Under the pieces are notes generated by a model. The model ran no database searches and was not told the origin of the DNA. It was given only the letters and a program-made list of their open reading frames with translations. From Candidatus Poribacteria bacterium (lineage in GTDB: Bacteria; Poribacteria; WGA-4E; PCPOR2b), in the NCBI GenBank assembly GCA_963665285.1, contig OY762266.1, positions 2,120,059 to 2,184,058 on the forward strand: DNA of 64,000 bases, given 5' to 3'. The first letter of the stretch is position 1. The number at the start of each line of letters is the position of its first letter. Positions 9,041 to 62,904 of the stretch are shown one piece after another. The translations under genes were made by a program, and so were the position numbers.

Positions 9041-9099
9041 AAGGTAAAGCAGTAACCCTCTTTTTACATCTGCCCCATTAACTTTAACAGGTATACGCA

Positions 9100-10857: not shown

Positions 10858-10918
10858 TTGAGCGGGCTTGCAGAGGGTAGGGAATATCCTCTGCAAGCAT
10901 ATCCATCTGCACTAATCA

Positions 10919-12576: not shown

Positions 12577-14712
12577 TTAAGCAGTGCTTCTAAAGAAATA
12601 CTCCAACTGTTCAAGTGGAGTATCCAGTTGCATCGGCATCAATTCATTAATAAGAGATCTGAGCTGATGTTCACGACCTGGGACGCTCTGAAGTTGCAGG
12701 TTTTGTGTGTTCAAGTATTTCTTCAGTTGTTCCACAAGGAAGGTCTGCAATCCTTTGCCTGATTCGTGCAACTGTGTTGGCAGTAATGCAGGAACGTTAA
12801 TTCCGCTGATAAAGATTTCAATCAACTCCAGTTGGTAGTCGATCTGTTCAGCAACTTGATCATATTTCTCAATTGCAGACTCACGCACCTTATCGTTCAA
12901 CGCTGCGACCTCACTATGGACAAACTTTGTATAGGCTGTATTCCAACTGTTTTCGTTGAATTGCTCGTTAGCGGTACAAAGCTTTTCCAACTTGTTGGTT
13001 ATCTTCGTTAGCTGGTCCGATAGAGTGATTTTGATACTCTCATGGAGGGTAGTGGCAAGCTGCGCGAGCGTTTTGATGAATTCAAGCTCAAATTCCTTAT
13101 AATTGTCGTCCGATTCCCGCTGCATTAGTTCAATCAGTTGATTAGAAATATCGCGCACGTCCGGAGACTCCTTCAAATGAAGTTGAACTAAAATATAAGC
13201 GGATTTCGCCAAACTAAAAGCAACATCATGAGCGGAATTACTAGCTTGCTCTTGAACCTCGTGAACAGTTTTCTGGACTTCCAGCAGCCGCTCGTAAAAG
13301 CTAATTTGTTCCTTTGTGCTATCAAGGGTGTAGGTACGGGGGTTAGGAACTTCAAACGCTTTCTTTGTCAAGATCTCACGTTTGTCACTGATTTCACGAC
13401 GGCGTTGTTTATCTTCGGCATCCTCAAGTGCTTCTGAAAGTGATTGGACAGATTCTTGAAGCGAATCGATTTGGGTAGTAATGGGGGGATAGTGGAGGTA
13501 GCGAAAATCTGTTGTAATGTCACGGATTCCCTCCAACAACTCGACGAGGATTTCTTCATACGCTTGATCTTCGAGGGGTGAGTATACCTCTTCTTCTGGT
13601 TCATCTTCTTCATCTAGTAGTCGTTGTACAAATTGATAGAGATATTCAAGTTGATGTTTTTGTAGTACAGCCGCCTCTGTATAGGAACAAAGCTTATCCC
13701 CCAGAATTGCACAACCATCAGTGACTGCTCCCCGATCCAAACCCAACGCTGCGAGGCTAATGTGCATCAAATCTTCTTCAATTTCTGGAAAATTTTTCTC
13801 AAAAGCGAAAGCTAACATTTCATACATCTCATCCGGTATCGGATCAGGGCGGCTTTTATCGACAGTTGAACGGTGACTAGCATCTCCTCTACGCACCCGT
13901 TGGCGTGTTTTCGTGATGATTAAGGGCTGCTCTTCGTCCTCGTACAAACCGGCGGATCTGCGCCTTGAAGTTTTTTGGTTATATAGATTGAGAGCATCTT
14001 GGTAGTGGTAGAGCAGTTCCTCACTTCCAAGTTCAATCAGCAATGATTCGATAGTGCTTTTCGGATCGACCGCAATACCTTCTTGCGAGAGTAATCGATT
14101 CGACAAAGCGGCAAACCCATCGGCACCCAGATTCCGGAACGGACGCAGCAAATATGCCCGCTGATCGTCTATGCAGATTTTATGTTGACCAAGCGGAAAA
14201 AAACCTTTTACATCCTTTTGATCACTATCAAACCAGATTTCCAGAGGGTAAGTCTGGTTATAAATTTGGAAATTGATGGATCTAGTATTGAGCTGATCAA
14301 ATATCTCCTGACTCACACGCGCCAGATCATTGGCATCAATAAGGATGGAAGAAGCCTTGGCATTCGTATAGAAGTTGGCTTCAATAATCCGGTCTTCTGG
14401 GAGGAAGTGACGGCGTTCAATAATATGTGTCCCCGTTGCGTTTTCATTTGTAATCGCAATCCGCGGAATATCATACGCATCGTAGTAGTAATACGATTTC
14501 CAACTGAAGGTGCGCCGTCTCATTTTCTCAAACAGCTGATACGACAAGCGTTCTTTGACCTGCTTTTCACCCCGTGTTTCCCTTCCTTCATAGATAGCGA
14601 TCTGCTCAGAAGTTTCGGGTGGTTGCAGGCTAATTTGTGGAAGCGTCGAAGTCTTTTGCTTGCCTGACAGGCGATCCAGCGTGCTTGCAATATACTCACT
14701 CCAGTTTGCCAT
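12577..14712 (-). CDS. Large hypothetical protein (711 aa, acidic, coiled-coil-rich C-terminal half)
   Basis: Long ORF with protein-like composition and no recognisable domain. It is on the same strand as, and upstream of, the 493-aa protein and the permease. Confidence 0.5.
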   Translation of the reverse strand: MANWSEYIASTLDRLSGKQKTSTLPQISLQPPETSEQIAIYEGRETRGEKQVKERLSYQLFEKMRRRTFSWKSYYYYDAYDIPRIAITNENATGTHIIERRHFLPEDRIIEANFYTNAKASSILIDANDLARVSQEIFDQLNTRSINFQIYNQTYPLEIWFDSDQKDVKGFFPLGQHKICIDDQRAYLLRPFRNLGADGFAALSNRLLSQEGIAVDPKSTIESLLIELGSEELLYHYQDALNLYNQKTSRRRSAGLYEDEEQPLIITKTRQRVRRGDASHRSTVDKSRPDPIPDEMYEMLAFAFEKNFPEIEEDLMHISLAALGLDRGAVTDGCAILGDKLCSYTEAAVLQKHQLEYLYQFVQRLLDEEDEPEEEVYSPLEDQAYEEILVELLEGIRDITTDFRYLHYPPITTQIDSLQESVQSLSEALEDAEDKQRRREISDKREILTKKAFEVPNPRTYTLDSTKEQISFYERLLEVQKTVHEVQEQASNSAHDVAFSLAKSAYILVQLHLKESPDVRDISNQLIELMQRESDDNYKEFELEFIKTLAQLATTLHESIKITLSDQLTKITNKLEKLCTANEQFNENSWNTAYTKFVHSEVAALNDKVRESAIEKYDQVAEQIDYQLELIEIFISGINVPALLPTQLHESGKGLQTFLVEQLKKYLNTQNLQLQSVPGREHQLRSLINELMPMQLDTPLEQLEYFFRSTA

Positions 14713-15602: not shown

Positions 15603-16583
15603 ATGAAAGAAAAGAAGAATTTAGCGGTAGCAGATAACTCTCAGCAATTGATAACTTCTAAGTCAATAACAGAAATAACTCAGTTGACTTCGGAGTCTCT
15701 TAAAAAGACATTGTTAGAGTTGAATCTATTGGCAGAAGACTTTGAGAAATCTGATAATTTTGTGGATCAGATTGAACATTTAATCGCGGCACCTCTGGAG
15801 TTTGATATATTCCAGAGAAAGATAGCGCGCCTCACTGAAAATCTCAAAGTAATCACTGAACGCGCGGCCGAAAATCACCGCTATCTCGCTGATACTATCG
15901 AAGGTACATACGGACACGCTGTTGAACTCATAAATGTCATTGGCGAGACCCGCGCTAGTATTAACGCCCGCTTCAAATTCTGGCTCCACTCTTTTCAAAC
16001 AGGAGATCAATCCGAAGAACAGAAATCACGCGAACTTTCAGGTTTTTCGGAATTTCTCGACCTGTTCGCTGAAAAACCGGCACGCTATGCGTACTTTTTA
16101 GCATCGTTCCAATCAAAACCGCTTCTCATTTGCCAGTATATCTCTCCGGACACTGAACCACAGAAAAATGTCACCTATTCCCTGTCCTCTTATGTTGCCC
16201 CGCCATCTGGATCATTTCGCAGCTTAAAAAGGGCTTGGAACAAACTCTTCAAATCCCCCAATAGAAGTGTGTTACATCTTTTTCACAGTTCTCACCCCCA
16301 GTCATCCCTCGGTACGTTCAAAGGGCGTTCGCCTTTCTTGGCTGGACAGTATGCTCCCCATCAACATGGCGAGCTAGATCAGCTGCCCAAAATTATCTAT
16401 GATTTCATCAATATCTACGGTATTTCCGGCTGCATTCACGTACATCTGTTGAAGAGCGAGGATCAGTGTGCTATCTTCACAACACAGCGCCATGTTGAAT
16501 GTGATGGGAATTCAGTTCAGTTGGCTGATACAGACTGTCCTGCCGGATCACCGAAAGATCGTCATCAATTAATCATTGAATAG
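15603..16583 (+). CDS. Hypothetical protein in an AT-rich segment
   Basis: The 326-aa ORF has an N-terminus whose codon usage is much more AT-rich than neighbouring genes. No family signature. It lies next to the IS remnant. Confidence 0.4.
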   Translation: MKEKKNLAVADNSQQLITSKSITEITQLTSESLKKTLLELNLLAEDFEKSDNFVDQIEHLIAAPLEFDIFQRKIARLTENLKVITERAAENHRYLADTIEGTYGHAVELINVIGETRASINARFKFWLHSFQTGDQSEEQKSRELSGFSEFLDLFAEKPARYAYFLASFQSKPLLICQYISPDTEPQKNVTYSLSSYVAPPSGSFRSLKRAWNKLFKSPNRSVLHLFHSSHPQSSLGTFKGRSPFLAGQYAPHQHGELDQLPKIIYDFINIYGISGCIHVHLLKSEDQCAIFTTQRHVECDGNSVQLADTDCPAGSPKDRHQLIIE

Positions 16584-33857: not shown

Positions 33858-34652
33858 ATGATGAATCGTTTCGGCTTTGATGTTTCAGGTCAACCGATTG
33901 AGGACTTGATTCGCTGGGCATCCGAAAATGGTTTTTGGTACATTGATTTTCAAGCAGACCTGCCCCCGAATGACATTGCCTCATTCGACGCCGCGCGTGT
34001 TCGGGGAGTGCGAGACCTCTGCGAAAGGCATGATATTGCCACTGGCATCCATCCATCGTCCGCAATAAATAACGCCGAATATGTGCCTATCATGGCGGAA
34101 GCGGTGGATGAATATCTGTTTGCTAACCTCGACTTGGCTGCCCGACTCGGCTGCGGTTGGCTTGTGGGACATGGCGGGTATCATTTCGGTGATGTCCCGC
34201 GACGACGGGAGGTGGCGGTTGAACGGATGAAGCGATTGGTAGACAGAGCAGAGCGAGTAGACGTCCCTATCTTCTTCGAGAACCACAACAAAGAACCCGA
34301 TTATGCCGAAATCCACTACATCCCGCACAACGTCGAAGAGACTCACTGGTTCTTTGATGCGATTCAATCGCCGTACTTTCAGTGGGCGTTCAATGTTGCC
34401 CACGGCCATCTTGTGCCCGAAGGTTGGGTGGGGTTCCTTGATGCGTTTGGCGTGGAGAATATTGGTCAGGTACGCCTCAACGATAACACCGGCGATTATG
34501 AGGTGCATCTCGTCCCCGGTGAGGGCACGATTGACTTTGAAGCACTGTTTGCAAGGCTGAAAACAGACGGCTATTCCGGTTGGTTCAGCCTCGGTTTTGG
34601 CAACGATGCGGATAAGGTGCGGGTGCGGGATTGGTTTGCTACTCTGGTGTAA
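33858..34652 (+). CDS. Sugar phosphate isomerase/epimerase (xylose-isomerase-like TIM barrel, AP endonuclease family 2)
   Basis: TIM-barrel family signature (histidine and acidic metal ligands; HGGYHFG, FENHN). GGAGGA lies upstream of the ATG. Confidence 0.7.
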   Translation: MMNRFGFDVSGQPIEDLIRWASENGFWYIDFQADLPPNDIASFDAARVRGVRDLCERHDIATGIHPSSAINNAEYVPIMAEAVDEYLFANLDLAARLGCGWLVGHGGYHFGDVPRRREVAVERMKRLVDRAERVDVPIFFENHNKEPDYAEIHYIPHNVEETHWFFDAIQSPYFQWAFNVAHGHLVPEGWVGFLDAFGVENIGQVRLNDNTGDYEVHLVPGEGTIDFEALFARLKTDGYSGWFSLGFGNDADKVRVRDWFATLV

Positions 34653-35095
34653 CAAAATCAAGCCTCATCTGTTCTTTTGCTCTAATTTTTTTTTTGATTG
34701 CTAACTAGTAGCAAATCCAGTGCTTTAGGGTTGAATCCAACCCCTTTAATTTTGTTTGTTTTTCTCAATAAAATATGGTATAGTTGATATATCGCCTTGT
34801 GGGAGAATGCTATCGCCACTGCTAAGTGGTGTCTCCCACACTCCTATAGCATGGATAGTAAAAGGCGGATTGGGCGATAACTAAGCCCTTAAAATCAATA
34901 CTCGCTGCGGGACACGCAGAGAGTCTAAACGCCCGTGGAAAGATGGTAAGACTCTGGCTTTCAGAGCATGTCTCGCCGAAGCGGGAATACAGCAACCTTA
35001 ACGGGAGTCAGTCTGTCGAAAGAATCCCAAGCGTTTATGCTTGGGAGTAGATCAGTGCTAACATTTACCCGTATTGTGTCTGAATAAATTATGGT

Positions 35096-35169
35096 CGGGG
35101 CGTAGCGCAGTCCGGAAGCGTGCTTGAATGGGGTTCAAGAGGTCGCTGGTTCAAATCCAGTCGCCCCGA
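35096..35169 (+). tRNA. tRNA-Pro (anticodon GGG)
   Basis: A 74-nt cloverleaf. The acceptor stem is CGGGGCG/CGCCCCG. The D-arm is GCGC-AGTCCGGAA-GCGT. The anticodon stem CTTGA/TCAAG carries the loop ATGGGGT (anticodon GGG, G37). The T-arm is GCTGG-TTCAAAT-CCAGT, with discriminator A. CCA is not encoded. Confidence 0.8.
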
Positions 35170-35189
35170 TTTCTTTGTGTAGAGAGGTA

Positions 35190-36512
35190 GTGGTGGATAA
35201 CAGCATCAATGTGGGGCTTCTTGGCTGGGGCACAGTCGGTACGGGTGTGTCCAAGATTTTGCTCAACCAGAGCGATCTGATTGAACAGAATGCCGGGATT
35301 CAACTCCGTTTAATCAAAATTGCAAAGCGTACGTTACCTGCATCTCGCCCCGGGGTTGAATTGGGCGCGGATCGTCTGACGACAAATCCCGCCGAGATTG
35401 TCGAGAACCCTGAGATCGATATAGTTGTAGAGTTGATGGGCGGGACCGATGAAGCGCGTCTTTTAGTCACTCAAGCTATCCGTAACGGCAAGCATGTTGT
35501 GACAGCGAACAAGGCGTTATTGGCAGCGCACGGATTTGAGCTCTTTCAACTTGCTGATAAGCATAATGTCAGTCTGAATTTTGAGGCGAGTGCCGCCGGG
35601 GGCATCCCAATAATCAAAACCCTACGGGAGAGTTTCGCCGCAAACCGCATCCATTCAATCTACGGCATCATCAACGGCACCTGCAACTACATCTTGACGG
35701 AGATGCACGAAAACGAAGTCGATTTTGACGAAGTGCTGAAAGATGCACAAGCCAAAGGGTATGCTGAGGCAGATCCGACATTTGATGTTGAAGGGATTGA
35801 TGCCGCGCATAAGCTGACCCTCCTCACTTCCCTCGCTTACGGTTTTGCCATGCCGATGGATGGGGTTTACACGGAAGGTATCACACATATCACGCCCAAT
35901 GAGATTCAGTACGCTCGTGAACTCGGATACGTGATCAAACTCCTTGCTATCGCGAAACTGAATCAAGACCGGGTTGAAACGCGTGTCCATCCGACATTGG
36001 TGCCCGTGCGCAGTATGCTCGCAAATGTTGGTGGTGCATTCAATACTGTCTGTGTCATTGGCGATGCCGTTGGTCCAACCCTGTTCTATGGACAAGGTGC
36101 CGGCGAAATGCCGACAGCGAGCGCTGTTGTTGCGGATATTATTGATGCGGCGAAATCGATTAGCGGTAGGGTGAGATCTCAGGTCCCGCGCGGTTGGCTC
36201 TCCGGGTCGCAAGCTAACATCTCTCTCTGTCCTATTGATGATGTTCAAACTCGTTACTATGTCCGTCTCGTTGTTCTAGATCAGCCGGGGGTGTTAGCAC
36301 AGATTAGCAATATCCTCGGAGAACACCGTATCAGCATTGCCTCCGTCATCCAGAAAGAACGCCATGAAATTGACGATACTGCTTCACTTGTTATCGTAAC
36401 ACACAAAGCTGTTGAGAAAAACATGCAGATGGCAATTCGAGAGATTGATACACTTGGTGTTGTCAAGGGGACAAGCCGACTGATCCGCATTGAAGAGGAA
36501 GTTGCCTTTTAA
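35190..36512 (+). CDS. hom: Homoserine dehydrogenase
   Basis: N-terminal NAD-binding motif ([13 protein letters not shown]), a catalytic domain and a C-terminal ACT domain. GAGAGG lies upstream of GTG at 35190 and 35193. The ORF-track start at 35124 overlaps the tRNA and was rejected. Confidence 0.9.
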
Positions 36513-36526
36513 GGAAATCGCAGCGA

Positions 36527-37588
36527 ATGGTCTGGAACGGTGTCATTCATCACTACCGTGCATATCTACCGGTTACATCAGAAACCCCAATTATTACGCT
36601 CAAGGAAGGGAATACACCCCTCGTTGAGGCGACAAACTTAAATGAGGCAATTGGTAACGACCTGCGCCTCTACCTGAAATGCGAGGGACTAAATCCGACG
36701 AGTTCCTTCAAAGATCGGGGCATGACCGTTGCTATCTCCAAATCCGTTGAGGATGGCGCTCAAGCAGTAATGTGTGCCTCAACTGGCAACACGTCGGCGT
36801 CTGCTGCTGCCTACGCTGCCAAAGCGAAACTGAAATGTATTGTACTGGTTCCGAAGGGGGAAATTGCCCTTGGGAAATTGGCACAAGCGTTGATGCACGA
36901 TGCAAAAGTCCTTGCGGTTGATGGAAATTTCGACAAAGCACTTCAGCTTGTGCGAGACGTTACCGAAAAGCACCCAATTCATCTGGTAAATTCGCTTAAC
37001 CCCTATCGCATCGAAGGACAGAAGACAGGTGCCTTTGAGGTCATTGACCATCTTGGCTTTGTGCCTGATTATCAAGCGATGCCTGTTGGTAATGCTGGGA
37101 ATATTACCGCTTATTGGAAAGGATACAAGGAGTATTACAACTGTGGCAAGGCAGAGAGTCTTCCCAAAATGCTTGGCTTTCAGGCTGCCCAAGCGGCACC
37201 GATAGTCTTAGGGCATGCTATTGAGGAACCGCAGACAGTTGCGAGTGCAATTAGGATAGGCAATCCCGCAAGTTGGCGGACTGCGGAGGAAGCGCGGGAC
37301 GAATCGAAAGGATTAATCGGTTACGTGTCGGACGACGAAATTTTGCAAGCCTATCAGATGGTGGCAAAATTAGAGGGGTTGTTTGTTGAACCTGCTTCCG
37401 CAGCTTCAATCGCTGGCGTTATCAAATTGAATCGGAGCGGATATTTCAAGCCGAGTTCAACAATCGTTTGTATCCTGACCGGACATGGCTTGAAAGATCC
37501 GGACACCGCGCTAGGAGAAATCGGGGGTGAGCCGATCACAGTGTCTGCGAGTGAAGATGCAATTCTGAAATATGTTTATGAAGTGTGA
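36527..37588 (+). CDS. thrC: Threonine synthase
   Basis: PLP-dependent enzyme with the lysine motif SFKDRG. The length and N-terminus fit the family. Confidence 0.9.
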
Positions 37589-37672
37589 GCGGTGTGAAGC
37601 GTGAGGCGTGAACACAATTGGTTCATTAGGTAATTAATGAACGGGTGAACGAATGAATGAATACAATGAACT
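37589..37672. repeat. Intergenic repeat copy X1 (GTGAAGCGTGAGGCG motif plus several AATGAAC direct repeats)
   Basis: It shares the GTGAARCGTGAKGCG motif and ATGAACC-type direct repeats with the copies at 39913-39985 and 48683-48731. It also contains the palindrome GTTCATT-N8-AATGAAC. Confidence 0.5.
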
Positions 37673-37799
37673 TGTTGCGACCCTCTCACCAACTCGTACC
37701 AAAGGTTAAAGAAGATGCTCACATTAAGAAATGGTGCAACAGAAACCGAGTTTTTGTCAGGGATGTACTGCAAATCTGCGTTCACTCTGCACAGAGCAC

Positions 37800-39848
37800 A
37801 TGCTTGTTGACAATCAATTTTCAGCAAAAGAACACTTTAACGTGAAAACAGTCGGAATCGGTCTTATTCTTTTGATTCTATTTTTACCGAACACCTTTGC
37901 CCAAGATCACACGCAATGGGGGTTACCCGACGGTGCTAAGGTGCGCCTCGGTAAAGGGCTGGTAACCGAGATACAGTATTCGCCCGATGGAAAGCGGCTC
38001 GCAGTGGCGGGTAGTATCGGTATTTGGCTTTATGATACGGTGACCTATCAAGAGGTCGCCTTGTTGACTGGGCATATGATTAGTGTCGTAAGCGTTGCAT
38101 TCAGTCCTGATGGTAGCACGCTTGCAACTGGGAGTGAAGACACTACGGTGCGGCTATGGGATGTGAACACAGGGACACCCATCCACACTCTCGAAGGGCA
38201 TACGAGTTGGGTCTATAGCGTGTCGTTCAGTCCCGATGGTAGCACACTTGCAACTGGGAATTGGGGCGATACGGCGCAACTGTGGGATGTGAACACAGGG
38301 ACACCCATCCGCACCCTTGAAGGGCATAGAGGCGAGGTCGAGAGTGTAGCGTTCAGTCCCGATGGTAGCACGCTTGCAACTGGGAGTGAAGACACTACGG
38401 TGCGACTGTGGGATGTGAACACAGGGACACCCATCCACACCCTCGAAGGGCATAGGGGCGAGGTCGAGAGTGTAGCGTTTAGTCCCGATGGTAGCACGCT
38501 TGCAACTGGGTATTGGGACCGGACAGTGCAACTGTGGGATGTGAACACAGGGACGCCCATCCGCACCCTTGAAGGGCATACGGATAGGGTCTATAGCGTG
38601 TCGTTCAGCCCCGATGGTAGCACGCTTGCAACTGGGAGTTTTGACGGTAGGGTACGACTGTGGGATGTGAACACAGGTGCCCCCATCCGCACCCTTGAAG
38701 GGCATACGGATAGGGTCTATAGCGTGTCGTTCAGTCCTGATGGTAGCACGCTTGCAAGTGGGAGTTTCGACGATACGGTGCGACTGTGGGATGTGAACAC
38801 AGGTGCCCCCATCCGCAGCCTTAAAGGGCATAGGGGTGAGGTCATGAGTGTAGCGTTCAGTCCTGATGGTAGCACGCTTGCAAGTGGGAGTTTGGACGGT
38901 ACGGTGCGACTGTGGGCTGTGAACACAGGTGCCCCCATCCGCAGCCTTGAAGTGTATTGGGCGTATTGGTTTTCGGTCAGTAGTGTGTCGTTCAGTCCCG
39001 ATGGTAGCACGCTTGCAAGTGGGTATTGGGACCGGACAGTGCAACTATGGGATGTGAACACAGGTGCCCCCATCCGCAGCCTTGAAGGGCATACGGGTAG
39101 GGTCACAAGCGTGTCGTTCAGTCCTGATGGTAGCACACTTGCCAGTGGGAGTGGGGACGGTACGGTGCGACTGTGGGAACTCACCCCGTCCGTCACACAG
39201 GAGGAAGAACAGGTCGAAGGGGATATCAATGGGGATGGTGTGGTCAACATCCAAGATTTATTCCTCATTGCCGGGTGGCTCGGACAGACGGGACAGAATG
39301 ATGCTGATGTCAACGGAGATGGCGTGGTCAACATCCAAGATTTAGTCTTCGTTGCTGGGCGGCTTGGAAGCACTGCAGCCCCGCGTGCCTTTCACCCACA
39401 GGCCCTTGCAGCCCTCACCGCCGCTGATGTCGAAGGATGGCTTATCCAAGCGCAGCAAATGGGACTGATAGATCCCGTCTCTCTGCGCGGCCTTGCTGTG
39501 TTGGGGCAACTTCTTGCGGCATTGACTCCGAAAGAGACCGCCCTGTTGTCCAACTACCCAAACCCGTTCAACCCGGAGACATGGATACCGTATCACCTCG
39601 CTCACGCTGCCGATGTAACGCTCACGATTTATGACACTCAAGGCACGCTGATACGGCGGTTGGATTTGGGGCATCAGCAGGCGGACTATTACACGAATCG
39701 GGCAAAGGCGGCGTATTGGGATGGGACCAATGATGCCGGTGAAGAGGTCGCTAGTGGTATCTATTTCTATCAACTGTTGGTGTCTTCATCTCGATCTATC
39801 GGGGCGGGAGAGTATGCCGCCACGAAACGAATGGTAATTGTCAAGTAG
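37800..39848 (+). CDS. Secreted WD40 beta-propeller protein with two dockerin-like Ca-binding repeats and a Por/T9SS-type C-terminal sorting domain
   Basis: Signal peptide (KTVGIGLILLILFLPNTFAQ). About 10 WD40 blades (GH..V.SVAFSPDGSTLATGS.D.TVRLWDVNTG.PI.TLEGH). DINGDGVVNIQDL and DVNGDGVVNIQDL are dockerin-type motifs. The C-terminal NYPNPFNPETWIPY...LTIYDTQG...GIYFYQL matches the Por_Secre_tail/TIGR04183-type domain. The start is ambiguous among 37731, 37800 (ATG) and 37842 (GTG). Confidence 0.8.
   Translation: MLVDNQFSAKEHFNVKTVGIGLILLILFLPNTFAQDHTQWGLPDGAKVRLGKGLVTEIQYSPDGKRLAVAGSIGIWLYDTVTYQEVALLTGHMISVVSVAFSPDGSTLATGSEDTTVRLWDVNTGTPIHTLEGHTSWVYSVSFSPDGSTLATGNWGDTAQLWDVNTGTPIRTLEGHRGEVESVAFSPDGSTLATGSEDTTVRLWDVNTGTPIHTLEGHRGEVESVAFSPDGSTLATGYWDRTVQLWDVNTGTPIRTLEGHTDRVYSVSFSPDGSTLATGSFDGRVRLWDVNTGAPIRTLEGHTDRVYSVSFSPDGSTLASGSFDDTVRLWDVNTGAPIRSLKGHRGEVMSVAFSPDGSTLASGSLDGTVRLWAVNTGAPIRSLEVYWAYWFSVSSVSFSPDGSTLASGYWDRTVQLWDVNTGAPIRSLEGHTGRVTSVSFSPDGSTLASGSGDGTVRLWELTPSVTQEEEQVEGDINGDGVVNIQDLFLIAGWLGQTGQNDADVNGDGVVNIQDLVFVAGRLGSTAAPRAFHPQALAALTAADVEGWLIQAQQMGLIDPVSLRGLAVLGQLLAALTPKETALLSNYPNPFNPETWIPYHLAHAADVTLTIYDTQGTLIRRLDLGHQQADYYTNRAKAAYWDGTNDAGEEVASGIYFYQLLVSSSRSIGAGEYAATKRMVIVK
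38095..39185 (+). repeat. Nucleotide-level tandem repeats (period about 126 bp, about 8-9 copies) encoding the WD40 blades
   Basis: Long near-identical segments recur, for example CTGTGGGATGTGAACACAGG[GT][AG]C[AC]CCCATCC[AG]CA[CG]CCT[TC]GAAGGGCATA. The spurious antisense ORFs with repeated CKRATIGTERH also reflect this. Confidence 0.75.
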
Positions 39849-39912
39849 GCATGTAAAGAACCACTGGTGCTAGTTTGCAACTGTTAATGCGCTCTTCAGT
39901 CAGAGACCGAGA

Positions 39913-39985
39913 GTGATACGTGAAGCGTGATGCGCCACGAGAGGGTTCAACCAAGATGCTACACAAATGAACCAATGAACCAAGA
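39913..39985. repeat. Intergenic repeat copy X2 (GTGAAGCGTGATGCG ... AATGAACCAATGAACC)
   Basis: Same two motifs as X1, in the same order. It lies immediately upstream of lysC. Confidence 0.5.
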
Positions 39986-39996
39986 GGTAAGTAAGC

Positions 39997-41220
39997 GTGG
40001 GAATCATTGTCCAAAAATTTGGTGGGAGTTCTGTCGCGGATGCTACAAAGATCAAAAATGTTGCCAAGCGAATCGCACTAGCACGGGAGGGTGGACACGC
40101 TGTTGTGGTAGCTGTGTCTGCGATGGGAGATACGACTGATAATCTGATTCGACTTGCCCACGAAATTTCTGTAGATCCCCCTGAACGGGAACTGGATATG
40201 CTGCTGTCCACCGGGGAACAGGTCTCAATTGCCCTGTTGGCGATGGCGGTTTCAGAGCTGGGATACGAAGCGATCTCCCTCACCGGGACGCAGGTCGGCA
40301 TTATCACCAGCGGCTTCTATAGCAATGCCCGAATTCAGAGCATCAACAAAGAGCGTATCCTATCGGAACTTGAGCGTGGAAGGATTGTTATACTGGCGGG
40401 TTTTCAGGGGGTAACCATTGATAACGAGATTACGACCCTCGGACGAGGTGCCTCTGATACCACTGCTGTTGCCATTGCCGCAACGTTAGAGGCTGATCGT
40501 TGTGATATTTATACGGATGTAGAAGGCGTTTACACAGCAGACCCACGTGTCGTTCCAAATGCCCGTAAGCACGACCAGATTACCCATGATGAAATGCTTG
40601 AGATGGCGAGACTTGGTGCAAGGGTCTTGCACTCTCGATGTGTAGAGCTTGCGAAGAAATTTAGTGTTCATCTTTGCGTCCGCTCTAGCTTCAGTGAAGC
40701 CGAAGGCACAATGGTGGTAAAGGAAGACGAGATGATAGAAGAAGTTGTCGTCAGTGCGGTGACCTCTGATAAAGACCAGGCAAAGGTATCGCTGCTCGGT
40801 GTGCCGGACATACCGGGGATCGCGGCGCGTATTTTTCAGGCAGTTGCTGATGCCCACATCAGTATTGATATGGTCATTCAGACGACAAATCCGGGGGGTA
40901 CAGCCGACATAGCGTTTACAGTTACTGAGAAGGACCTGCAAGCAACAATTAAAATCATCGAAGGACTCAAAAGCGAAGTGGGTTTCGCCAGCGTTAGCCC
41001 AGACAAAAACATTGCGCAGGTGTCGTTAGTCGGAATTGGGATGAAGAGTCATGTGGGTATCGCTGCCCGAATGTTCCAAGCCCTCGCTGATGCAAATATC
41101 AATATTCAGATGATTAGTTCTTCAGAAATCACAATTTCTTGTGTGATTGATGAGAATGAAACGGAACGTGCTGTGCGTACGATTCACGATCGATTTGAAC
41201 TCGGAGGCACTGCTTCGTGA
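39997..41220 (+). CDS. lysC: Aspartate kinase (monofunctional, two C-terminal ACT domains)
   Basis: The N-terminus [11 protein letters not shown] is the amino-acid kinase family signature. Tandem ACT domains follow. GTG start. Confidence 0.9.
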
Positions 41221-46506: not shown

Positions 46507-46576
46507 GAGGTCGATCTCTGTTAGGTGAAAACCAACGAAGATTCACGTTTCATTCTTAACTCAGGTAAATAAATCG

Positions 46577-46620
46577 TGCAACAGAAACCGAGTTTTTTTG
46601 AAAACTCGGTTTCTTTTTGC
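46577..46620 (+). terminator. REP-like palindromic element acting as the fab operon terminator (copy 2 of a 3-copy family)
   Basis: GTGCAACAGAAACCGAGTTTTTTTGAAAACTCGGTTTCTTTTTGCG forms a 12-bp stem (AAACCGAGTTTT/AAAACTCGGTTT) followed by a U-rich tract. The 22-mer GTGCAACAGAAACCGAGTTTTT is identical at 37735-37756. A related palindrome is at 56486-56526. Confidence 0.55.
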
Positions 46621-48498: not shown

Positions 48499-48682
48499 GC
48501 CGCCTCCTCAAGGTTGCACGTCATTGGGGAACTGATGTATTTACTACCTCCGGGCATTCTACCAAAAATTCGATGTAGTGTCAATTAAGAATCTTGTTTC
48601 AGTCATCTGTAAATCGTGATATAATTGTACGCGGTACTATTGAATGCCGATAGCAGTAGTAACCTGTGGTGCGAGTTGGCTC

Positions 48683-48731
48683 GTTGATGAACCAATGTAC
48701 TAATGAACCAACCTACGCATCACGTTTCACT
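48683..48731. repeat. Intergenic repeat copy X3 (GATGAACCAATGTACTAATGAACCA followed by the reverse complement of the GTGAARCGTGATGC motif)
   Basis: Same motif pair as X1 and X2, in a different relative arrangement. It sits in the divergent region between the glyoxalase and the FtsX-like permease. Confidence 0.5.
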
Positions 48732-48823
48732 CTTCGATCAAGTGGTGAGTGTTAATCCTTACCTACTCAATTCCGTCTCAATGTATAAATGGGGATGACC
48801 TCAAAAAGATACAGGAGAATTGA

Positions 48824-51248: not shown

Positions 51249-51306
51249 TCTGGATCGACTGAAACCCCGACCCAGAAATCTTGGTCGGAGCCCCAACTAT
51301 GGTAAA

Positions 51307-51420
51307 TTTTAGAATTACTTATACACTGCCACTGCACAATCAACCCCCTAAATCCCCCTTATCAGGGGGACTTTGAAAACTTCGTGAAGATCGGAGTTAT
51401 TGGTAAATGCCTACTTATTT
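51307..51420. repeat. 114-nt intergenic repeat, copy A, containing the hairpin CCCCCT-TATC-AGGGGG
   Basis: About 85% identical to 62728-62841. Both copies lie immediately 3' of plus-strand genes. The loop differs (TATC versus TGTC) while the stem is preserved. Confidence 0.7.
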
Positions 51421-51651
51421 ATCTAGTTCACCATAAATCTTGTCAATCGAAGTAGTATGGGTTGTATTGGATAACGGCATGACAGTAATTCTTAAAGAAA
51501 TGCATCAAAATTTTCGCAATGTTGACCGAAACAGGTTGATATGCATTGATGAATTTACCGTGTAGAATTCTTGAGTCTATTGTAATACAGTATGATGCTA
51601 AAATCCGTTCTATATATCTACCATCTCACCTTTACAAAGGAGAAATAAATT

Positions 51652-53226
51652 ATGAAAATGCCCTGTCGTTTAACTGCCATAACGCTAATCTTGCTGACTA
51701 GCATCATGATATTGAGCTACAGCGGGAAAGAAACAGTGGCGGCACCCGATGTTGCTCCCGACAGCGTTTTGAATGTCATCCCCCAGGACACCGTTGGAGT
51801 CATTTACATACCCAGCTTACTGGGACTCAATGACGAAATTAACGCACTTATGGCAGGAATAATTCCTACAGATCCACCGCAAGAACTACCAGCTCAGATA
51901 CTAGCTGAGACCTTTGGTGCCGGTTTTGAGACGCTGGAAGAATTGGAAGAACTGGGTTTGGACATGCGGAGAAACTTCGCAGTGTTTCTCTCCGGTGTGA
52001 ATCCGCTGATGTATTCCGCTGCGGTTCACATTAAAGATGCGGAAAGCGTTAAACAGCTAATCGAAATGGAAGCGGAAGGCAGTAGTTCAGTTACCCATAA
52101 CGGTGTGACATATTATACTACGGGTGAAGAGGGGGCATTTGTTCTGATGGACGATGTGATGGTCTATTCAGGTTCAGCTGAGGTCTGTGAAAAGGTCATT
52201 GATACTCAGAAAAAAGCGATGCCATCGATTGTGGACAATACCGATTTTCAATCGCTCGAACTTGATACCACGTCCGGCGCAAATGATTTGGTTGCTTATT
52301 TTGCAATGGAGACTATCGTGGATGCCCTCCGTCCCACGCTGACTGAAAAAGCGGAAGAGTTAAAGGCAGAGATGAAGGCAAGCGCAGAAACCGCCCCAGA
52401 GCTCAGTGTCGGTTTAGGGCAGGCTGAAGGCGTAATTGACGGCGGTATATGGCTGTTGGATCAGTCAAAAACGTTAAGCCTCACCGTGCAACTTAAGGGC
52501 AGCGACCTACAAATTTCGCCGTTCCTCAAATTCAAAGGGGATAGCGAAATCCAAACATATATTAGTCAAATGCCGAGGGAACTGACACACCTCAAACACC
52601 TGCCCCAAACTGCGTTTCTCAATGGTGAAATGCAGTTTGAAGCGGAGAGGTTCATTGGACTAACAAAGGCAATGATGCAGTTATTTATCCCTTCGAGTTC
52701 AAACGCGGATACAGCGAAGATTGAAGAAGCAACCGAGGCACTTGTTGAAGCCGCAAAGGGTTTCTACGCAGGTTTGGGAGATAAGTTCGCTTTTTCCTTC
52801 AATTTTGGTGCTAGCCTGATGCCTGACATTTTGTACATCTACGACGTGACAGACGAAGAGCAGGTTAAAGCCTACATGGAGCAAGATTTCATCGAATATT
52901 TAGGAGTATCCATGGGATTGATGCAAGCGATGGGAGCTACTGAGGACCTCGCTGGTATGTACAGTGATGTGTCTGCAGGTCCCGCGGAAATATACAACGG
53001 TGTGGAGATTAAAAGTTATATTCTGCCAAATATCGACGCCATTTTCGCTGAACTTCCGCCCGGAATGGAAGTTGTTGCCCCAGAGCAGTGGAATATTTAC
53101 TATGCTATCAACGGTGGAAAAATGCTCTACGCAATGGCAGGTAACGCGCAACCGGTCAAAAACGCCCTAGACCGAATGGCAGGTATGGGGATAGGCTTTG
53201 ATCAGGGGCAGGCTACGCCAAGCTGA
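51652..53226 (+). CDS. Secreted hypothetical protein (signal peptide); probably continues to 53495 through a frameshift
   Basis: The signal peptide MKMPCRLTAITLILLTSIMILSYSG is followed by a 500-aa domain with no recognisable family. AAGGAGAAATAAATT lies upstream of the ATG. Confidence 0.6.
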   Translation: MKMPCRLTAITLILLTSIMILSYSGKETVAAPDVAPDSVLNVIPQDTVGVIYIPSLLGLNDEINALMAGIIPTDPPQELPAQILAETFGAGFETLEELEELGLDMRRNFAVFLSGVNPLMYSAAVHIKDAESVKQLIEMEAEGSSSVTHNGVTYYTTGEEGAFVLMDDVMVYSGSAEVCEKVIDTQKKAMPSIVDNTDFQSLELDTTSGANDLVAYFAMETIVDALRPTLTEKAEELKAEMKASAETAPELSVGLGQAEGVIDGGIWLLDQSKTLSLTVQLKGSDLQISPFLKFKGDSEIQTYISQMPRELTHLKHLPQTAFLNGEMQFEAERFIGLTKAMMQLFIPSSSNADTAKIEEATEALVEAAKGFYAGLGDKFAFSFNFGASLMPDILYIYDVTDEEQVKAYMEQDFIEYLGVSMGLMQAMGATEDLAGMYSDVSAGPAEIYNGVEIKSYILPNIDAIFAELPPGMEVVAPEQWNIYYAINGGKMLYAMAGNAQPVKNALDRMAGMGIGFDQGQATPS

Positions 53227-54317: not shown

Positions 54318-55355
54318 ATGAGAATAGACGTAAATTGGGTGAGAACGGTTTATAATAACGGCAGGGGATGGCATGTCGGAAATATGGTGCAGTGGAAAGG
54401 GGTATACTACATCTGTTTCGTTGATGGGACCGGTCACGGAACCGAGGACTCCCAAATCAGGGTATGTGCCTCCACCGACTTAGTGAATTGGACCTCCCAG
54501 ATTGCTATTGGGAGAAAGACAATAGACCCGAACCTGCTGCCCGTTGGTGACAAACTACTGTTGTATGGGGTGAAGGAAAGTACAGGCGATTCTGAGTTTG
54601 GTTTTCCATCTCAGCAGGTAGTGACGTGGACGACGGACGGAACGACTTGGGTGCCACCGAAGAGATGCTTTCTGAAGGATCGCGATTTTTGGCATCCCAT
54701 CGAATTTGATGGTCGCTATTACGTGGCATGTGATACGGTTGGACATGCGCCGCTCGGCATCCACAATTCGGTTGATCTGCTTACTTCGGCTGATGGCGAA
54801 CGATGGGAGTGGGTCACGGAGATTGTCCACGGGTCGGAGGAACCAGCCTATTACGATACGACAGGTATTCACTTTGGTACACCGGCGCCCAGCGAAACCT
54901 CCCTCTGTTTCTTTGACGATGGTCGCCTGTTAGCGGTCACACGAGCGCGGGGACATTGTGCGTTGCTCTCCACCTCGGAACCACCTTATGATCAGTGGGA
55001 CCGCTACCTTTCCCGCGAATCCCGCTGCTACGGTTCAGCCATCGCTAGGGTCGGTGAGCATGTTATCGTCACGGGTAGAAGTTTTGCCAATGAAGGTGTT
55101 CGCGCCACAGAGAACCGGTTCAACGATAAGTTCAGCGACCACGACCAGAGCCAACTCAGAACCGGGGTCTTCCTATACGAAGATGGTGATATCCGTCTGC
55201 ATGCAGTCCTGCCTAGTGGCGGAGACACCGGCTACGGCGGTATTCTTCCCATCAGAGACAACCAAGTGCTTATCGCGTACTATTCGTCCCACGAATACGC
55301 ACCGGGCGATAAGCACGGTTCCAATGTTTACCTAGCCTCCATATCGCTGACGTGA
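54318..55355 (+). CDS. BNR/Asp-box repeat beta-propeller protein (sialidase/glycoside-hydrolase-like)
   Basis: Asp-box-like motifs (TTDGTTW, SADGERW) and a propeller-like repeat pattern. No signal peptide. Function is tentative. Confidence 0.45.
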   Translation: MRIDVNWVRTVYNNGRGWHVGNMVQWKGVYYICFVDGTGHGTEDSQIRVCASTDLVNWTSQIAIGRKTIDPNLLPVGDKLLLYGVKESTGDSEFGFPSQQVVTWTTDGTTWVPPKRCFLKDRDFWHPIEFDGRYYVACDTVGHAPLGIHNSVDLLTSADGERWEWVTEIVHGSEEPAYYDTTGIHFGTPAPSETSLCFFDDGRLLAVTRARGHCALLSTSEPPYDQWDRYLSRESRCYGSAIARVGEHVIVTGRSFANEGVRATENRFNDKFSDHDQSQLRTGVFLYEDGDIRLHAVLPSGGDTGYGGILPIRDNQVLIAYYSSHEYAPGDKHGSNVYLASISLT

Positions 55356-56468: not shown

Positions 56469-56485
56469 GATTGCCTCCTTTCAAG

Positions 56486-56526
56486 AAACCGAGTTTTTTC
56501 CTGAAAACTCGGTTTCTGTTGTACAC
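56486..56526. repeat. REP-like palindrome, copy 3 (AAGAAACCGAGTTTTTTCCTGAAAACTCGGTTTCTGTTGTACAC)
   Basis: Same 12-bp stem as the element at 46577. Its right arm is the reverse complement of GTGTACAACAGAAACCGAGTTTT. It lies between the HpcH-like and Gfo/Idh/MocA genes. Confidence 0.55.
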
Positions 56527-60485: not shown

Positions 60486-62720
60486 ATGCGTTTTGGAGTA
60501 CAATTATGTGTTTTGGCTTTCTCAGCGATGTTGTCTATATCCATTATGGTCATTGCTGATGAGGAAGTTGAAGAGATTGTCATGCTGGAAGAGGTGATAG
60601 TTACCGCCCAAAAGCGTGAGCAGCGATCTTTTGATGTGCCGCTCTCTATTTCGACGCTGCAGGGCGAAAAATCCGACGCCTTGCGCTCATCTGGCATGGA
60701 TGTGCGATTTTTGTCGAACCGCACGCCCAGCTTGCAGATGGAATCCTCGTTTGGGCGTGTTTTCCCACGTTTTTATATCCGTGGCTTGGGCAATACGGAT
60801 TTTGATCTCAATGCTTCGCAGCCGGTTTCCGTTCTCTACGACGGGATTGTGCTTGAAAATGCTTTACTGAAAGGTTTTCCTGCTTTTGATCTTGATCGGA
60901 TTGAAGTGCTGCGAGGTCCACAAGGCACGCTGTTTGGACGTAATACCCCCGCAGGAATTGTCAAATTTGAATCGGCGCGTCCCACGCAAACATCCGAAGG
61001 ATATGGTCGGTTGAGCTACGGACAGTTCAACAGCAGTAATTTTGAGGGAGCGTGGTCTGGTCCGGTTATTCCATCTGTACTCGCCGCGAGACTTTCACTG
61101 CTTGTTCAGCAGCGGGGCGACTGGATAGATAACGAATACACCGAGGAGGAAGATGCCCTAGGGGGACATCGGGACATAGCCGGACGCTTGCAGTTTTTAT
61201 GGACACCCACCCCGGAACTGGAAGCATGGGTAAAAGTCCATGCCCGCGATCTCGATGGCACCGCGCGCTTGTTTCGCGCTAATACCCTGTCAGAGGGCGA
61301 GGGAGATCTAGTGTCGGGTTTTGACCGTGACCGCATCGCGCACGACGGGCGCAATGAGCAAACCTTGAGCACACAGGGCTTGGCGGCTGAACTGCGTTAT
61401 GACATAGGGGACTTCCAACTGGTTTCGCTGACGGGATTGGAGCGGCTTACCACCTTTTCGCGTGGAGACATTGACGGCGGATATGGCGCGGTCTTCACTG
61501 ATTCAAGTGGGCCCGGGACGATACCTTTTCCGTCTGAAACTGGGGCCGGTATTCCTGCGCTGCGCCAGTTTAGCCAAGAAGTTCGTCTGGTGAGCACAGG
61601 ACGCTACCGTCTCGCCTATCAGTTTGGGTTGTACTATTTCCGTGAATTTGTGGAGATGGAGGATTTTAACTACAATACTTTAGCTGAGGGCGCCCAAGAT
61701 GGGTTGGTGCGTCAAGAACAACTAGCCATCGCACGGGCGGCATTTGCGGCGTTGACCTTCCGATTGGTCGAGGATCTGGAATTGGGTGTTGGTTTACGAT
61801 TGTCTAATGATACGAAGGACTATACAGCGTGGAGGGAGGAGGCACCAGCTGTCACGGAGGCGGATCCCATCGGTCCCATCCACGAGAGTCCTGAAGCCAC
61901 GGTATGGAGCGGGGATCTGAGCCTGCGCTATGAGATCACGCCGAGTGTGCAGACGTATCTCCGCGCAGCGCGTGGTTTTCGCGCTCCCAGTATTCAAGGG
62001 CGTCTTCTGTTTGGCGATGAGGTTACAATAGCGGATACGGAGACTATTCTGTCTGTTGAAGGCGGCACAAAGTTGCGCCTGTTGGGGCAACGACTACACC
62101 TGAATCTGGCTGCGTTCCAGTATTTTATGCAGGATCAGCAGCTCACCGCGGTGGGCGGAGAAACCAATTTTAACCGGCTGGTGAACGCTGAGAGCACCGT
62201 CGGACGCGGCGTCGAAGCAGAATTGGTTCTCGCACCGATCACAGCACTGGAGGTTACAGCGGGAGTCAGTTACAACCAAACACGCATTGACGATCCAAGC
62301 TTGGCTATACAGGGCTGCGGCGCACCATGCACAGTGTTGAATCCGCGCGGGGCTGCTGAAGGGACTTTTTCCATTGACGGCAACAGTTTACCGCAGGCTC
62401 CGGGTTGGATTGCAGATATGACACTGCGCTACGCGCTTGATCTTCCGGCAGGCCTACGCCTCATCGCCTCTACAGATTGGGCTTATCGCAGCCGCGTGCG
62501 GTTCTTTCTCTACGATTCTGTCGAATATGCCGATGACTGGCTCTTAGAGGGCGGACTCCGCCTTGCCTGCTTATTACCATACGGCAACACAGAGGTGGCA
62601 ATCATAGGACGCAACATCCTTAACGACACGTCCCCCACCGGTGGCATCGACTTCAACAACCTAACTGGCTATGTGAATGAACCCCGGTTTTGGGGTCTGG
62701 AAGTGGTACGGCGATTTTAA
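60486..62720 (+). CDS. TonB-dependent outer-membrane receptor
   Basis: A signal peptide, a TonB-box/plug region (VIVTAQKREQRSFDVPLSISTL), a 22-strand barrel-length sequence, and a C-terminal aromatic (…VVRRF). AGGAGGA is 5 nt upstream of the ATG at 60486. Confidence 0.85.
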   Translation: MRFGVQLCVLAFSAMLSISIMVIADEEVEEIVMLEEVIVTAQKREQRSFDVPLSISTLQGEKSDALRSSGMDVRFLSNRTPSLQMESSFGRVFPRFYIRGLGNTDFDLNASQPVSVLYDGIVLENALLKGFPAFDLDRIEVLRGPQGTLFGRNTPAGIVKFESARPTQTSEGYGRLSYGQFNSSNFEGAWSGPVIPSVLAARLSLLVQQRGDWIDNEYTEEEDALGGHRDIAGRLQFLWTPTPELEAWVKVHARDLDGTARLFRANTLSEGEGDLVSGFDRDRIAHDGRNEQTLSTQGLAAELRYDIGDFQLVSLTGLERLTTFSRGDIDGGYGAVFTDSSGPGTIPFPSETGAGIPALRQFSQEVRLVSTGRYRLAYQFGLYYFREFVEMEDFNYNTLAEGAQDGLVRQEQLAIARAAFAALTFRLVEDLELGVGLRLSNDTKDYTAWREEAPAVTEADPIGPIHESPEATVWSGDLSLRYEITPSVQTYLRAARGFRAPSIQGRLLFGDEVTIADTETILSVEGGTKLRLLGQRLHLNLAAFQYFMQDQQLTAVGGETNFNRLVNAESTVGRGVEAELVLAPITALEVTAGVSYNQTRIDDPSLAIQGCGAPCTVLNPRGAAEGTFSIDGNSLPQAPGWIADMTLRYALDLPAGLRLIASTDWAYRSRVRFFLYDSVEYADDWLLEGGLRLACLLPYGNTEVAIIGRNILNDTSPTGGIDFNNLTGYVNEPRFWGLEVVRRF

Positions 62721-62727
62721 TAGTAGA

Positions 62728-62841
62728 TTTTAGAATTACTGATACACTTTCAATGCAAAACCAACCCCCTAAATCCCCCTTGTCAGGGGGACTTGGGAAA
62801 CTTCGAGCGGGGCGGAGTTATTGGTAAATGTCTTCTTATTT
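62728..62841. repeat. 114-nt intergenic repeat, copy B, containing the hairpin CCCCCT-TGTC-AGGGGG
   Basis: See copy A at 51307-51420. Confidence 0.7.
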
Positions 62842-62904
62842 CGCGTGTTTACTGTAAACAACCGCAAGGCATTCCTTCGATCCCTTGAATCTTGGATGTA
62901 AGAG

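Follow-up and report, generated by a model that had tools for sequence, protein, structure and literature searches.

The window analysed here is a stretch of 64,000 nucleotides from a Candidatus Poribacteria bacterium (contig OY762266.1 of assembly GCA_963665285.1, positions 2,120,059 to 2,184,058 of the forward strand), and the gene in question encodes a secreted protein of WD40 repeats, a dockerin and a C-terminal domain (CTD) and lies between thrC and lysC. A single intact open reading frame (ORF), 37731-39848 on the + strand, was found between these two genes, where an initial annotation made from the letters alone had placed it; long antisense ORFs within the same interval are by-products of the repeat array. 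The gene is an ordinary paralogue in a very large family, from sponge-associated Poribacteria, of secreted repeat proteins of the "eukaryote-like" WD40 kind, and its segment appears to be an insertion at a site that is empty in related genomes. Relative loci were gathered by protein search and contig look-up and carry the codes L003, L083, L084, L165-L174, L177 and L178. The gene, its parts and its neighbours are laid out as follows.

36527-37588, + strand: thrC (threonine synthase, PALP domain), left border of the proposed insertion
37731-37841, + strand: over-extended 5' part of the ORF, whose initial 37 codons are spurious and belong to the non-coding spacer
37842-39848, + strand: the WD40-dockerin-CTD gene itself, coding for a secreted protein of 668 aa when read from GTG 37842 (ATG 37800 as alternative start)
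37842-37904, + strand: predicted Sec-type signal peptide, MKTVGIGLILLILFLPNTFA/QD
37905-39179, + strand: WD40 array of 10 blades in 126-nt units
39219-39365, + strand: type I dockerin, two segments each of a Ca-binding loop and a helix (DINGDGVVNIQDL, DVNGDGVVNIQDL)
39396-39524, + strand: helical linker of three predicted helices (AlphaFold2 predicted local distance difference test score, pLDDT, of at least 90), conserved across the family
39555-39845, + strand: Ig-like beta-sandwich CTD resembling FlgD_ig and type IX secretion system (T9SS) CTDs, at the extreme C-terminus, with the motif NYPNPFNPETWIPY
39997-41220, + strand: lysC (aspartate kinase), right border of the proposed insertion

The array matches WD40 (PF00400) over nine stretches with an E value of 1e-125 and 405 bits against a cut-off of 27. 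Ten blades were counted, nine regular ones of 42-45 aa and a divergent first blade, in agreement with the "about 10" first estimated from the sequence. The 126-nt DNA units 3-8 and 10 are mutually 77-92% identical, with unit 2 at 60-67%. A single-sequence model of the array contains 39 strands at a pLDDT of 78 and does not settle whether they form one ring or two; its top fold matches are 2ymu (43% identity) and 5yzv (53%), both bacterial highly repetitive WD40 proteins. As in these proteins, from Nostoc and Thermomonospora, respectively, the 42-aa blades are near-identical and the repeats are kept similar in DNA, whereas the window protein has ten blades, a Sec leader and a surface-sorting tail. 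The orthologue in L083 has ~15 blades compared with 10 in the window, and there the gene (8370-10930) is broken by a single frameshift into ORFs of 544 and 309 aa. The array is 55-57% GC against 46-53% in the neighbouring sequence; foreign origin by base composition was considered and set aside as uninformative because a repeat rich in Gly, Ser, Pro and Trp could account for the difference.

The start of the gene lies downstream of the start of the ORF. In the L083 orthologue an in-frame TAG stands 6 nt before the ATG equivalent to window 37800, and 12 paralogue N-termini begin MKT...NTFAQD, the alignment of which to the window gives GTG 37842 (M-KTVGIGLILLILFLPNTFA/QD); for these two reasons 37731-37841 is taken as non-coding spacer. 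A 22-mer at 37734-37755, identical to 46576-46597, had been picked out as a repeat overlapping the annotated 5' end; the exact copy is real, but with the true start at GTG 37842 it falls in the 5' spacer, and the overlap is an artefact of the over-extended ORF. The ATG follows AAAAGGA in L177 and L178, and the GTG follows AAAAGAAC in the window and L083. The leader is judged by eye to be a Sec signal peptide, its NTFAQD motif and hydrophobic core being kept in the 12 paralogue N-termini. A search with the leader as query recovered N-terminal paralogue fragments only, among which the leader and first blade are conserved.

Downstream of the array, the dockerin scores 37.2 bits against the cut-off of 22.9 for Pfam Dockerin_1 (PF00404). 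Its two loops, DINGDGVVNIQD and DVNGDGVVNIQD, follow the pattern D-x-N-x-D-G-x-x-x-x-x-D, each is followed by a helix in the tail model (model residues 31-39 and 59-69), and the family profile matches the solved cellulosomal dockerin 2y3n_B in a PDB profile search (E 4e-10), so that the two Ca-loop repeats read from the sequence at the outset were upheld. No Pfam family matches the linker at 39396-39524. The domain that follows, which carries NYPNPFNPET and sits at the extreme C-terminus of the WD40 protein, had been assigned as a Por/T9SS-type sorting domain, and only part of that assignment stood. A T9SS-like beta-sandwich is present and passes FlgD_ig (PF13860; 40.8 bits against 27), but it scores below both T9SS-CTD cut-offs, at 20.9 against 27 for PF18962 (Por_Secre_tail) and 20.7 against 23 for TIGR04183. 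An alignment-based model of the 229-aa tail has a pLDDT of 82 overall and >90 within the sandwich. Foldseek searches with it returned FlgD (E 1e-5), PorU 6za2 (E 2.7e-5) and PorZ 5m11 (E 2.6e-3), the FlgD structures 7bhq, 7eha and 3osv lying between E 1e-5 and 3e-4. An Ig-like sandwich at the extreme C-terminus, together with an N-terminal Sec signal assigned by inspection, is the architecture of T9SS cargo, with FlgD an equally good match by fold. The tail therefore has the FlgD/T9SS-CTD fold without formal membership of the T9SS-CTD families, and the FlgD_ig match establishes the fold only, with no role as a flagellar hook cap implied.

It had also been proposed that dockerins and a T9SS-type CTD in one polypeptide are an unusual combination, which the family searches contradict, as thousands of poribacterial proteins share the same 229-aa module at 60-90% identity. 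A search with the tail gave 4,545 protein matches, the best 120 of which are 60-90% identical over 88-100% of the query, and among matches with a source name the label was Poribacteria. An exhaustive search of 1.84 billion cluster representatives (50% identity) found 2,365 tail clusters at E<=1e-30. In the 150 best matches, which are 214-2,295 aa long, the module always forms the extreme C-terminus; the window protein is collinear with it over ~210-229 aa at the same position, and NYPNPFNPETWIPY is invariant or nearly so (>=90%) in both family alignments. Among 50 sampled tail proteins, 48 contain a dockerin, 48 FlgD_ig, 24 a cohesin, 21 WD40 and 20 leucine-rich repeats (LRR), with the cohesin (PF00963) lying just upstream; the usual fusion partners of the module are WD40 or LRR arrays. 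Many paralogues have a precomputed PF18962 match and the NCBI name "T9SS type A sorting domain-containing protein". In the freshwater relative L174, from a lake metagenome and with ThrC 74% identical, an 876-aa SGL/Vgb-lyase-cohesin-dockerin-FlgD_ig protein (288-2918) and a 735-aa FlgD_ig-tailed protein (9189-11396) are encoded, and the tail module therefore extends beyond sponge symbionts.

Proteins of this kind have been described before. WD40 repeats joined to a TIGR04183-like domain were reported for poribacterial eukaryote-like proteins, "especially WD40 repeats", by Kamke et al. 2014 (PMC3909097), who share with the present case the phylum, the WD40 and TIGR04183-like tail, and the missing Por machinery. 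The window copy differs in being strain-variable and within a block of housekeeping genes, and the dockerin, helical linker and frequent cohesin go unmentioned there; the word "cohesin" was not found in PMC3909097, and the searchable literature yielded no account of the dockerin/cohesin part for Poribacteria. Surface scaffolds that combine cohesin, dockerin and CTD have been inferred for Cloacimonadota (PMC8542988), a precedent for cohesins or dockerins joined to a CTD anchor, and cohesin/dockerin modules outside cellulosomes were described by Peer et al. 2009, as cited in PMC8542988. Like the type I dockerin-cohesin pairs of clostridial cellulosomes, the family has a duplicated Ca-loop and helix dockerin, with cohesins in the same family. 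Unlike them, its passenger is a WD40 or LRR interaction domain and not an enzyme, its context is not carbohydrate-degrading, and dockerin and cohesin are often adjacent in one poribacterial polypeptide. With the T9SS type A CTDs of Bacteroidota, such as those of Porphyromonas gingivalis PorU (6za2) and PorZ (5m11), it shares a Sec-dependent ~90-aa Ig-like sandwich at the extreme C-terminus; in contrast to Bacteroidota cargo, the CTD always comes after a conserved dockerin and three-helix linker, in a phylum without a reported T9SS.

To place the gene among its relatives, the thrC-lysC interval was compared across genomes. The closest reference to the window is the Candidatus Poribacteria chromosome OZ244825.1 (ThrC 92% identical), and the window thrC product is 88-95% identical at the amino acid level to poribacterial orthologues. 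Scans with ThrC found no Poribacteria among metagenome contigs, where the top match was 69% identical, and only one poribacterial locus among genome contigs. Among relatives, nine or ten contigs, drawn from four lineages, have lysC immediately after thrC, and the spacers are these.

L003: 89 bp
L165-L169 (five contigs, two of them closed chromosomes): 100 bp
L170: 38 bp
L171-L173: 80 bp

The empty-site spacers align with one another and none contains X sequence, the repeat that flanks the gene in the window (below). Only three genomes have the gene at this site, namely the window, L083 and L084, the last a short-read scaffold with a gap within the array. The filled sites share none of the empty-site spacer; homology between the two kinds of site is lost at the final 1-2 codons of thrC and picks up again 15 nt upstream of the GTG of lysC, at AAGAGGTnAGTAAGC, or possibly ~35 nt upstream. 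As judged from these alignments, ~2.4 kb (roughly 37586 to 39950) appears to have replaced the ancestral spacer, and the suggestion of an insertion into a contiguous thrC-lysC pair held up in the synteny comparison.

Sequence identity beside the site points to exchange between lineages. Compared with L171, L165 and L083 over 33858-37585, the window is a mosaic, being 95-98% identical to L171 across most of the AP-endonuclease-hom stretch, with two 300-nt segments of it at 89%, and only 82-84% over the last ~600 nt of thrC, where L083 is closest. This pattern places a recombination breakpoint beside the insertion and suggests that the filled allele may have moved between lineages by homologous recombination. 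Over thrC and lysC together the window is 91.0% identical to the empty L165 group and 90.7% to the filled L083. Two differences in gene content were seen in relatives. In L174, thrC is followed by a nucleotidyltransferase/PIN toxin-antitoxin-like pair in place of lysC, and in L167 (1-947) a Cas12f1-like TnpB-type gene (PF07282) stands upstream of MR_MLE genes where other strains have a DUF3604 gene.

The initial annotation had the gene bracketed on both sides by members of one repeat family, X, and took the whole to be consistent with an insertion cassette. The repeats and related intergenic elements are the following.

37589-37710, + strand: X1, a complete X copy, orthologous in L083, which ends at ~37710 and not at 37672
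39913-39985, + strand: X2, a partial rearranged X copy, GTGATAC GTGAAGC GTGATGC followed by inverted TTGGTTCATT twice
48650-48735, - strand: X3, the third window copy, in the divergent spacer between glyoxalase and MacB/FtsX genes
L083 8177-8280 and 11090-11180, the L165 AP-endonuclease-tRNA spacer and the L083 MLE-AP-endonuclease spacer: X copies in relatives
37718-37755, + strand: relic left arm of a terminator palindrome, 38 nt, 87% identical to 46560-46597, with the 22-mer of 37734-37755 as part of it, right arm missing
46576-46620, + strand: complete terminator palindrome 3' of fabF, 14-bp stem and U-run (fold z -4.6)

An X copy opens with a 5' heptamer array (GTGAWRC)n, continues with TTGGTTCATT/AATGAAC motifs and closes with a tail CCAACTCGYACCAMAGGTT, which in X1 reads CCAACTCGTACCAAAGGTT. 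X1 and X2 do belong to a real family, but what they have in common is short, namely a heptamer stretch of 11-15 nt in direct orientation, TTGGTTCATT in inverted orientation and a few 8-mers; X2 is only partial, and its last ~30 nt may be the ancestral lysC leader. With two of the three window copies flanking the WD40 gene among a few dozen spacers, we estimate a chance probability of about 0.15-0.25, and on that estimate the two flanking copies alone are not significant. X as a structured RNA was ruled out by non-significant fold z-scores (-0.2 to -1.5; X1 z -0.16), and X has no Rfam match. The heptamer arrays at 37586-37612 and 39913-39933, with a period of 7 and TGA in the unit, give stops in all three frames after the thrC stop, and in L174 (5840-5960) the spacer between hom and thrC contains a long palindrome made up of two inverted heptamer arrays. 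The palindromic intrinsic terminator, AGAAACCGAGTTTT(n)AAAACTCGGTTTCT, occurs after unrelated genes, with further copies at window 56484-56524, L166 4016, L177 281 and L178 8620, the last coming after a cohesin-dockerin-CTD gene. Its right half, which 3' of the gene would be a sign of insertion into a hairpin, was sought there and not found.

The flanking elements also vary among the filled genomes. The L083 3' spacer (10965-11190) contains an extra X-type element of ~215 nt between 11-nt direct repeats, AATGCGCKCTT; this repeat, AATGCGC(T/G)CTT, may have arisen by duplication of a target site and is the most suggestive sign that X is mobile. In L084 a strain-specific element of ~220 nt, resembling a miniature inverted-repeat transposable element (MITE), lies between the WD40 gene and lysC (2005-2235). 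Elements of this type (140-220 nt, core hairpin CCCCCTAAATCCCCCTTATCAGGGGGAC) are also found at window 51299-51437 and 62720-62858, the two being 82% identical. Given these differences in the 3' spacer between the three filled genomes, X and the other flanking repeats, which are members of intergenic families spread across the genome, appear to turn over independently of the gene. X, the CCCCCTAAATCCCCCTTATCAGGGGGAC element and the terminator palindrome are all short, non-coding, intergenic, multi-copy and strain-polymorphic, like repetitive extragenic palindromic (REP) sequences and MITEs. X differs from these in its heptamer/octamer motifs of variable copy number and in having no clear terminal inverted repeats, consistent target duplication or significant fold.

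These data were weighed against two other origins of the locus. Had the gene reached the thrC-lysC spacer by transposition, carried in a mobile cassette with X repeats as its ends in the manner of a MITE pair or composite element, then presence/absence polymorphism at a conserved site would be expected and is indeed found, and both flanks have X-family sequence where the empty sites have none. Candidate ends can be named as well: the L083 flanks share a 58-nt direct repeat (88% identity, E 2e-11), the window has an 18-nt imperfect inverted pair (37618-37635 and 39966-39983, 83% complementarity) and shared 11-15-mers, and the 6-nt ACACAA, which is seen at each of the two junctions and one time in the empty site of L170, is a possible target-site duplication. 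The polymorphism of X-type and MITE-like elements between strains is likewise suggestive of mobility. The candidate ends of the window are nevertheless all short, and the ACACAA match is weak, being 6 nt long and tied to a single atypical empty site of 38 bp; X2 is a rearranged fragment, two of three X copies beside one gene are not improbable by chance, and the ancestral spacer has been replaced and not simply interrupted. The insert contains no transposase or integrase, and no mobility gene was found by a Pfam search of 20 window ORFs, each at least 200 aa long, or in the precomputed annotation covering 27.7-49.8 kb. Nor does the same bounded unit recur at the two paralogue loci examined, L177 and L178, where X repeats are absent and the generic terminator is the only up- or downstream DNA in common. 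With the same gene in the same place in L083 and L084 and unrelated flanks in L177 and L178, the cassette interpretation is regarded as improbable, and the segment was most likely brought in by illegitimate or homologous recombination and not by a dedicated mobile element.

It was also considered whether the gene could be ancestral at thrC-lysC and independently deleted in the relatives. The window and L083 form no clean clade, the window being as near to the empty L165 group as to L083, and the direct X repeats on both sides of the L083 gene could drive a deletion. Against this, the four empty lineages (L003, L165, L171 and L170) keep an alignable spacer without any X remnant, and the distant L174, which has neither the gene nor lysC after thrC, offers no support. 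Separate deletion events would not restore one and the same spacer, and a copy of X would remain after any deletion between X copies; gain is accordingly strongly favoured over loss, and an ancestral gene is a very remote prospect. The insertion history, which is largely demonstrated, would then have begun with thrC, a spacer of ~40-100 bp and lysC. In one sub-lineage (the window, L083 and L084), a ~2.4-kb segment would have taken over most of the spacer, in the order X repeat, terminator relic, gene and X-like repeat. Later, inter-repeat recombination would have altered the number of blades, and the spacers would have gained or lost small repeat elements.

As to how the protein may work, the window encodes a TonB-dependent receptor (Pfam scan), and the cell therefore has an outer membrane. 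The Sec leader would direct the protein to the periplasm, and the C-terminal Ig-like domain could act as a tag for sorting to and anchoring at the outer surface. Its dockerin would bind, in a Ca-dependent manner, the cohesins of sister proteins with the same tail, so that cohesin-dockerin pairing could produce a cross-linked surface coat in which the WD40 propeller is the exposed ligand-binding part. Given the cohesins in 24 of the 50 sampled family members, such partners plausibly exist.

Export could alternatively proceed through a divergent poribacterial T9SS that recognizes and cleaves the CTD and attaches the protein to the surface, making the protein a true type IX substrate. The extreme C-terminal position, the Sec leader and a beta-sandwich matching the C-terminal domains of PorU and PorZ are all consistent with this, as are weak matches to TIGR04183, PF18962 and the models NF033707 (PorU) and NF052228 (PorZ), and the many paralogues with PF18962 matches and T9SS type A names. 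Set against these are the scores under both curated cut-offs and FlgD as an equal or better match by fold and sequence. Pfam detected no T9SS family in the same 20 ORFs, and none is listed by the precomputed annotation covering 27.7-49.8 kb. T9SS is established in the FCB (Fibrobacteres-Chlorobi-Bacteroidetes) group, and Poribacteria lie outside it. The Por structural genes have, moreover, been reported as missing from poribacterial single-amplified genomes (SAGs; PMC3909097). True type IX secretion is on this evidence doubtful, with a CTD below the cut-offs in a phylum whose T9SS core is reported absent.

The preferred reading, that the gene is a paralogue of the WD40 family with the surface function and the insertion history set out above, is given a probability of roughly 0.72 as a whole. 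Several points weigh against it. Export, anchoring and cohesin binding are all predictions, the CTD falls short of both T9SS-CTD families and the Por genes are reported as missing, as noted above, and the window protein itself has no cohesin. Translation would start at a GTG, and the ribosome-binding site is weak. On the thrC+lysC tree the monophyly of the filled genomes is not clear, and a single insertion therefore needs either later recombination between lineages or a tree that is unresolved. The L083 frameshift may mean that the locus is decaying in some strains, or it may be a long-read assembly error at 19x coverage.

A few further observations were made around the locus. A promoter and terminator scan of 37400-40200 gave matches that did not exceed those in shuffled sequence and no + strand promoter for the WD40 gene, and an Rfam search of both spacers at E<=1 returned nothing, with no lysine riboswitch upstream of lysC. 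Just 5' of hom lies a tRNA gene (35096-35169, + strand; Rfam 59 bits), across which a 462-aa "hom" ORF from TTG 35124 reads (MNGVQEVAGSNPVAPI...), gene callers giving 439-440 aa. Five ORFs of 326-711 aa in the window have no Pfam match at E<=1e-5.

10919-12400, - strand: ORF without Pfam match
12577-14712, - strand: ORF without Pfam match
15603-16583, + strand: ORF without Pfam match
51652-53226, + strand: ORF without Pfam match
54318-55355, + strand: ORF without Pfam match

As a single locus, the gene between thrC and lysC matters little, since it adds a copy to a family that had been noticed in Poribacteria before and represents an insertion or deletion at strain level; the tail family as a whole is of more interest. 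It is possible, though speculative, that the dockerin, three-helix linker and Ig-like CTD together form the address label of a poribacterial surface display without a canonical T9SS. Such a label would send WD40 and LRR proteins out of the cell and, by way of cohesin-dockerin pairs, link them to one another in a variable coat facing the sponge host. If so, strain-specific insertions and changes in blade number, such as those seen here, would diversify that cell coat. In its size and uniformity, the tail family hints at a way in which sponge symbionts might assemble and diversify a surface made of eukaryote-like interaction domains.

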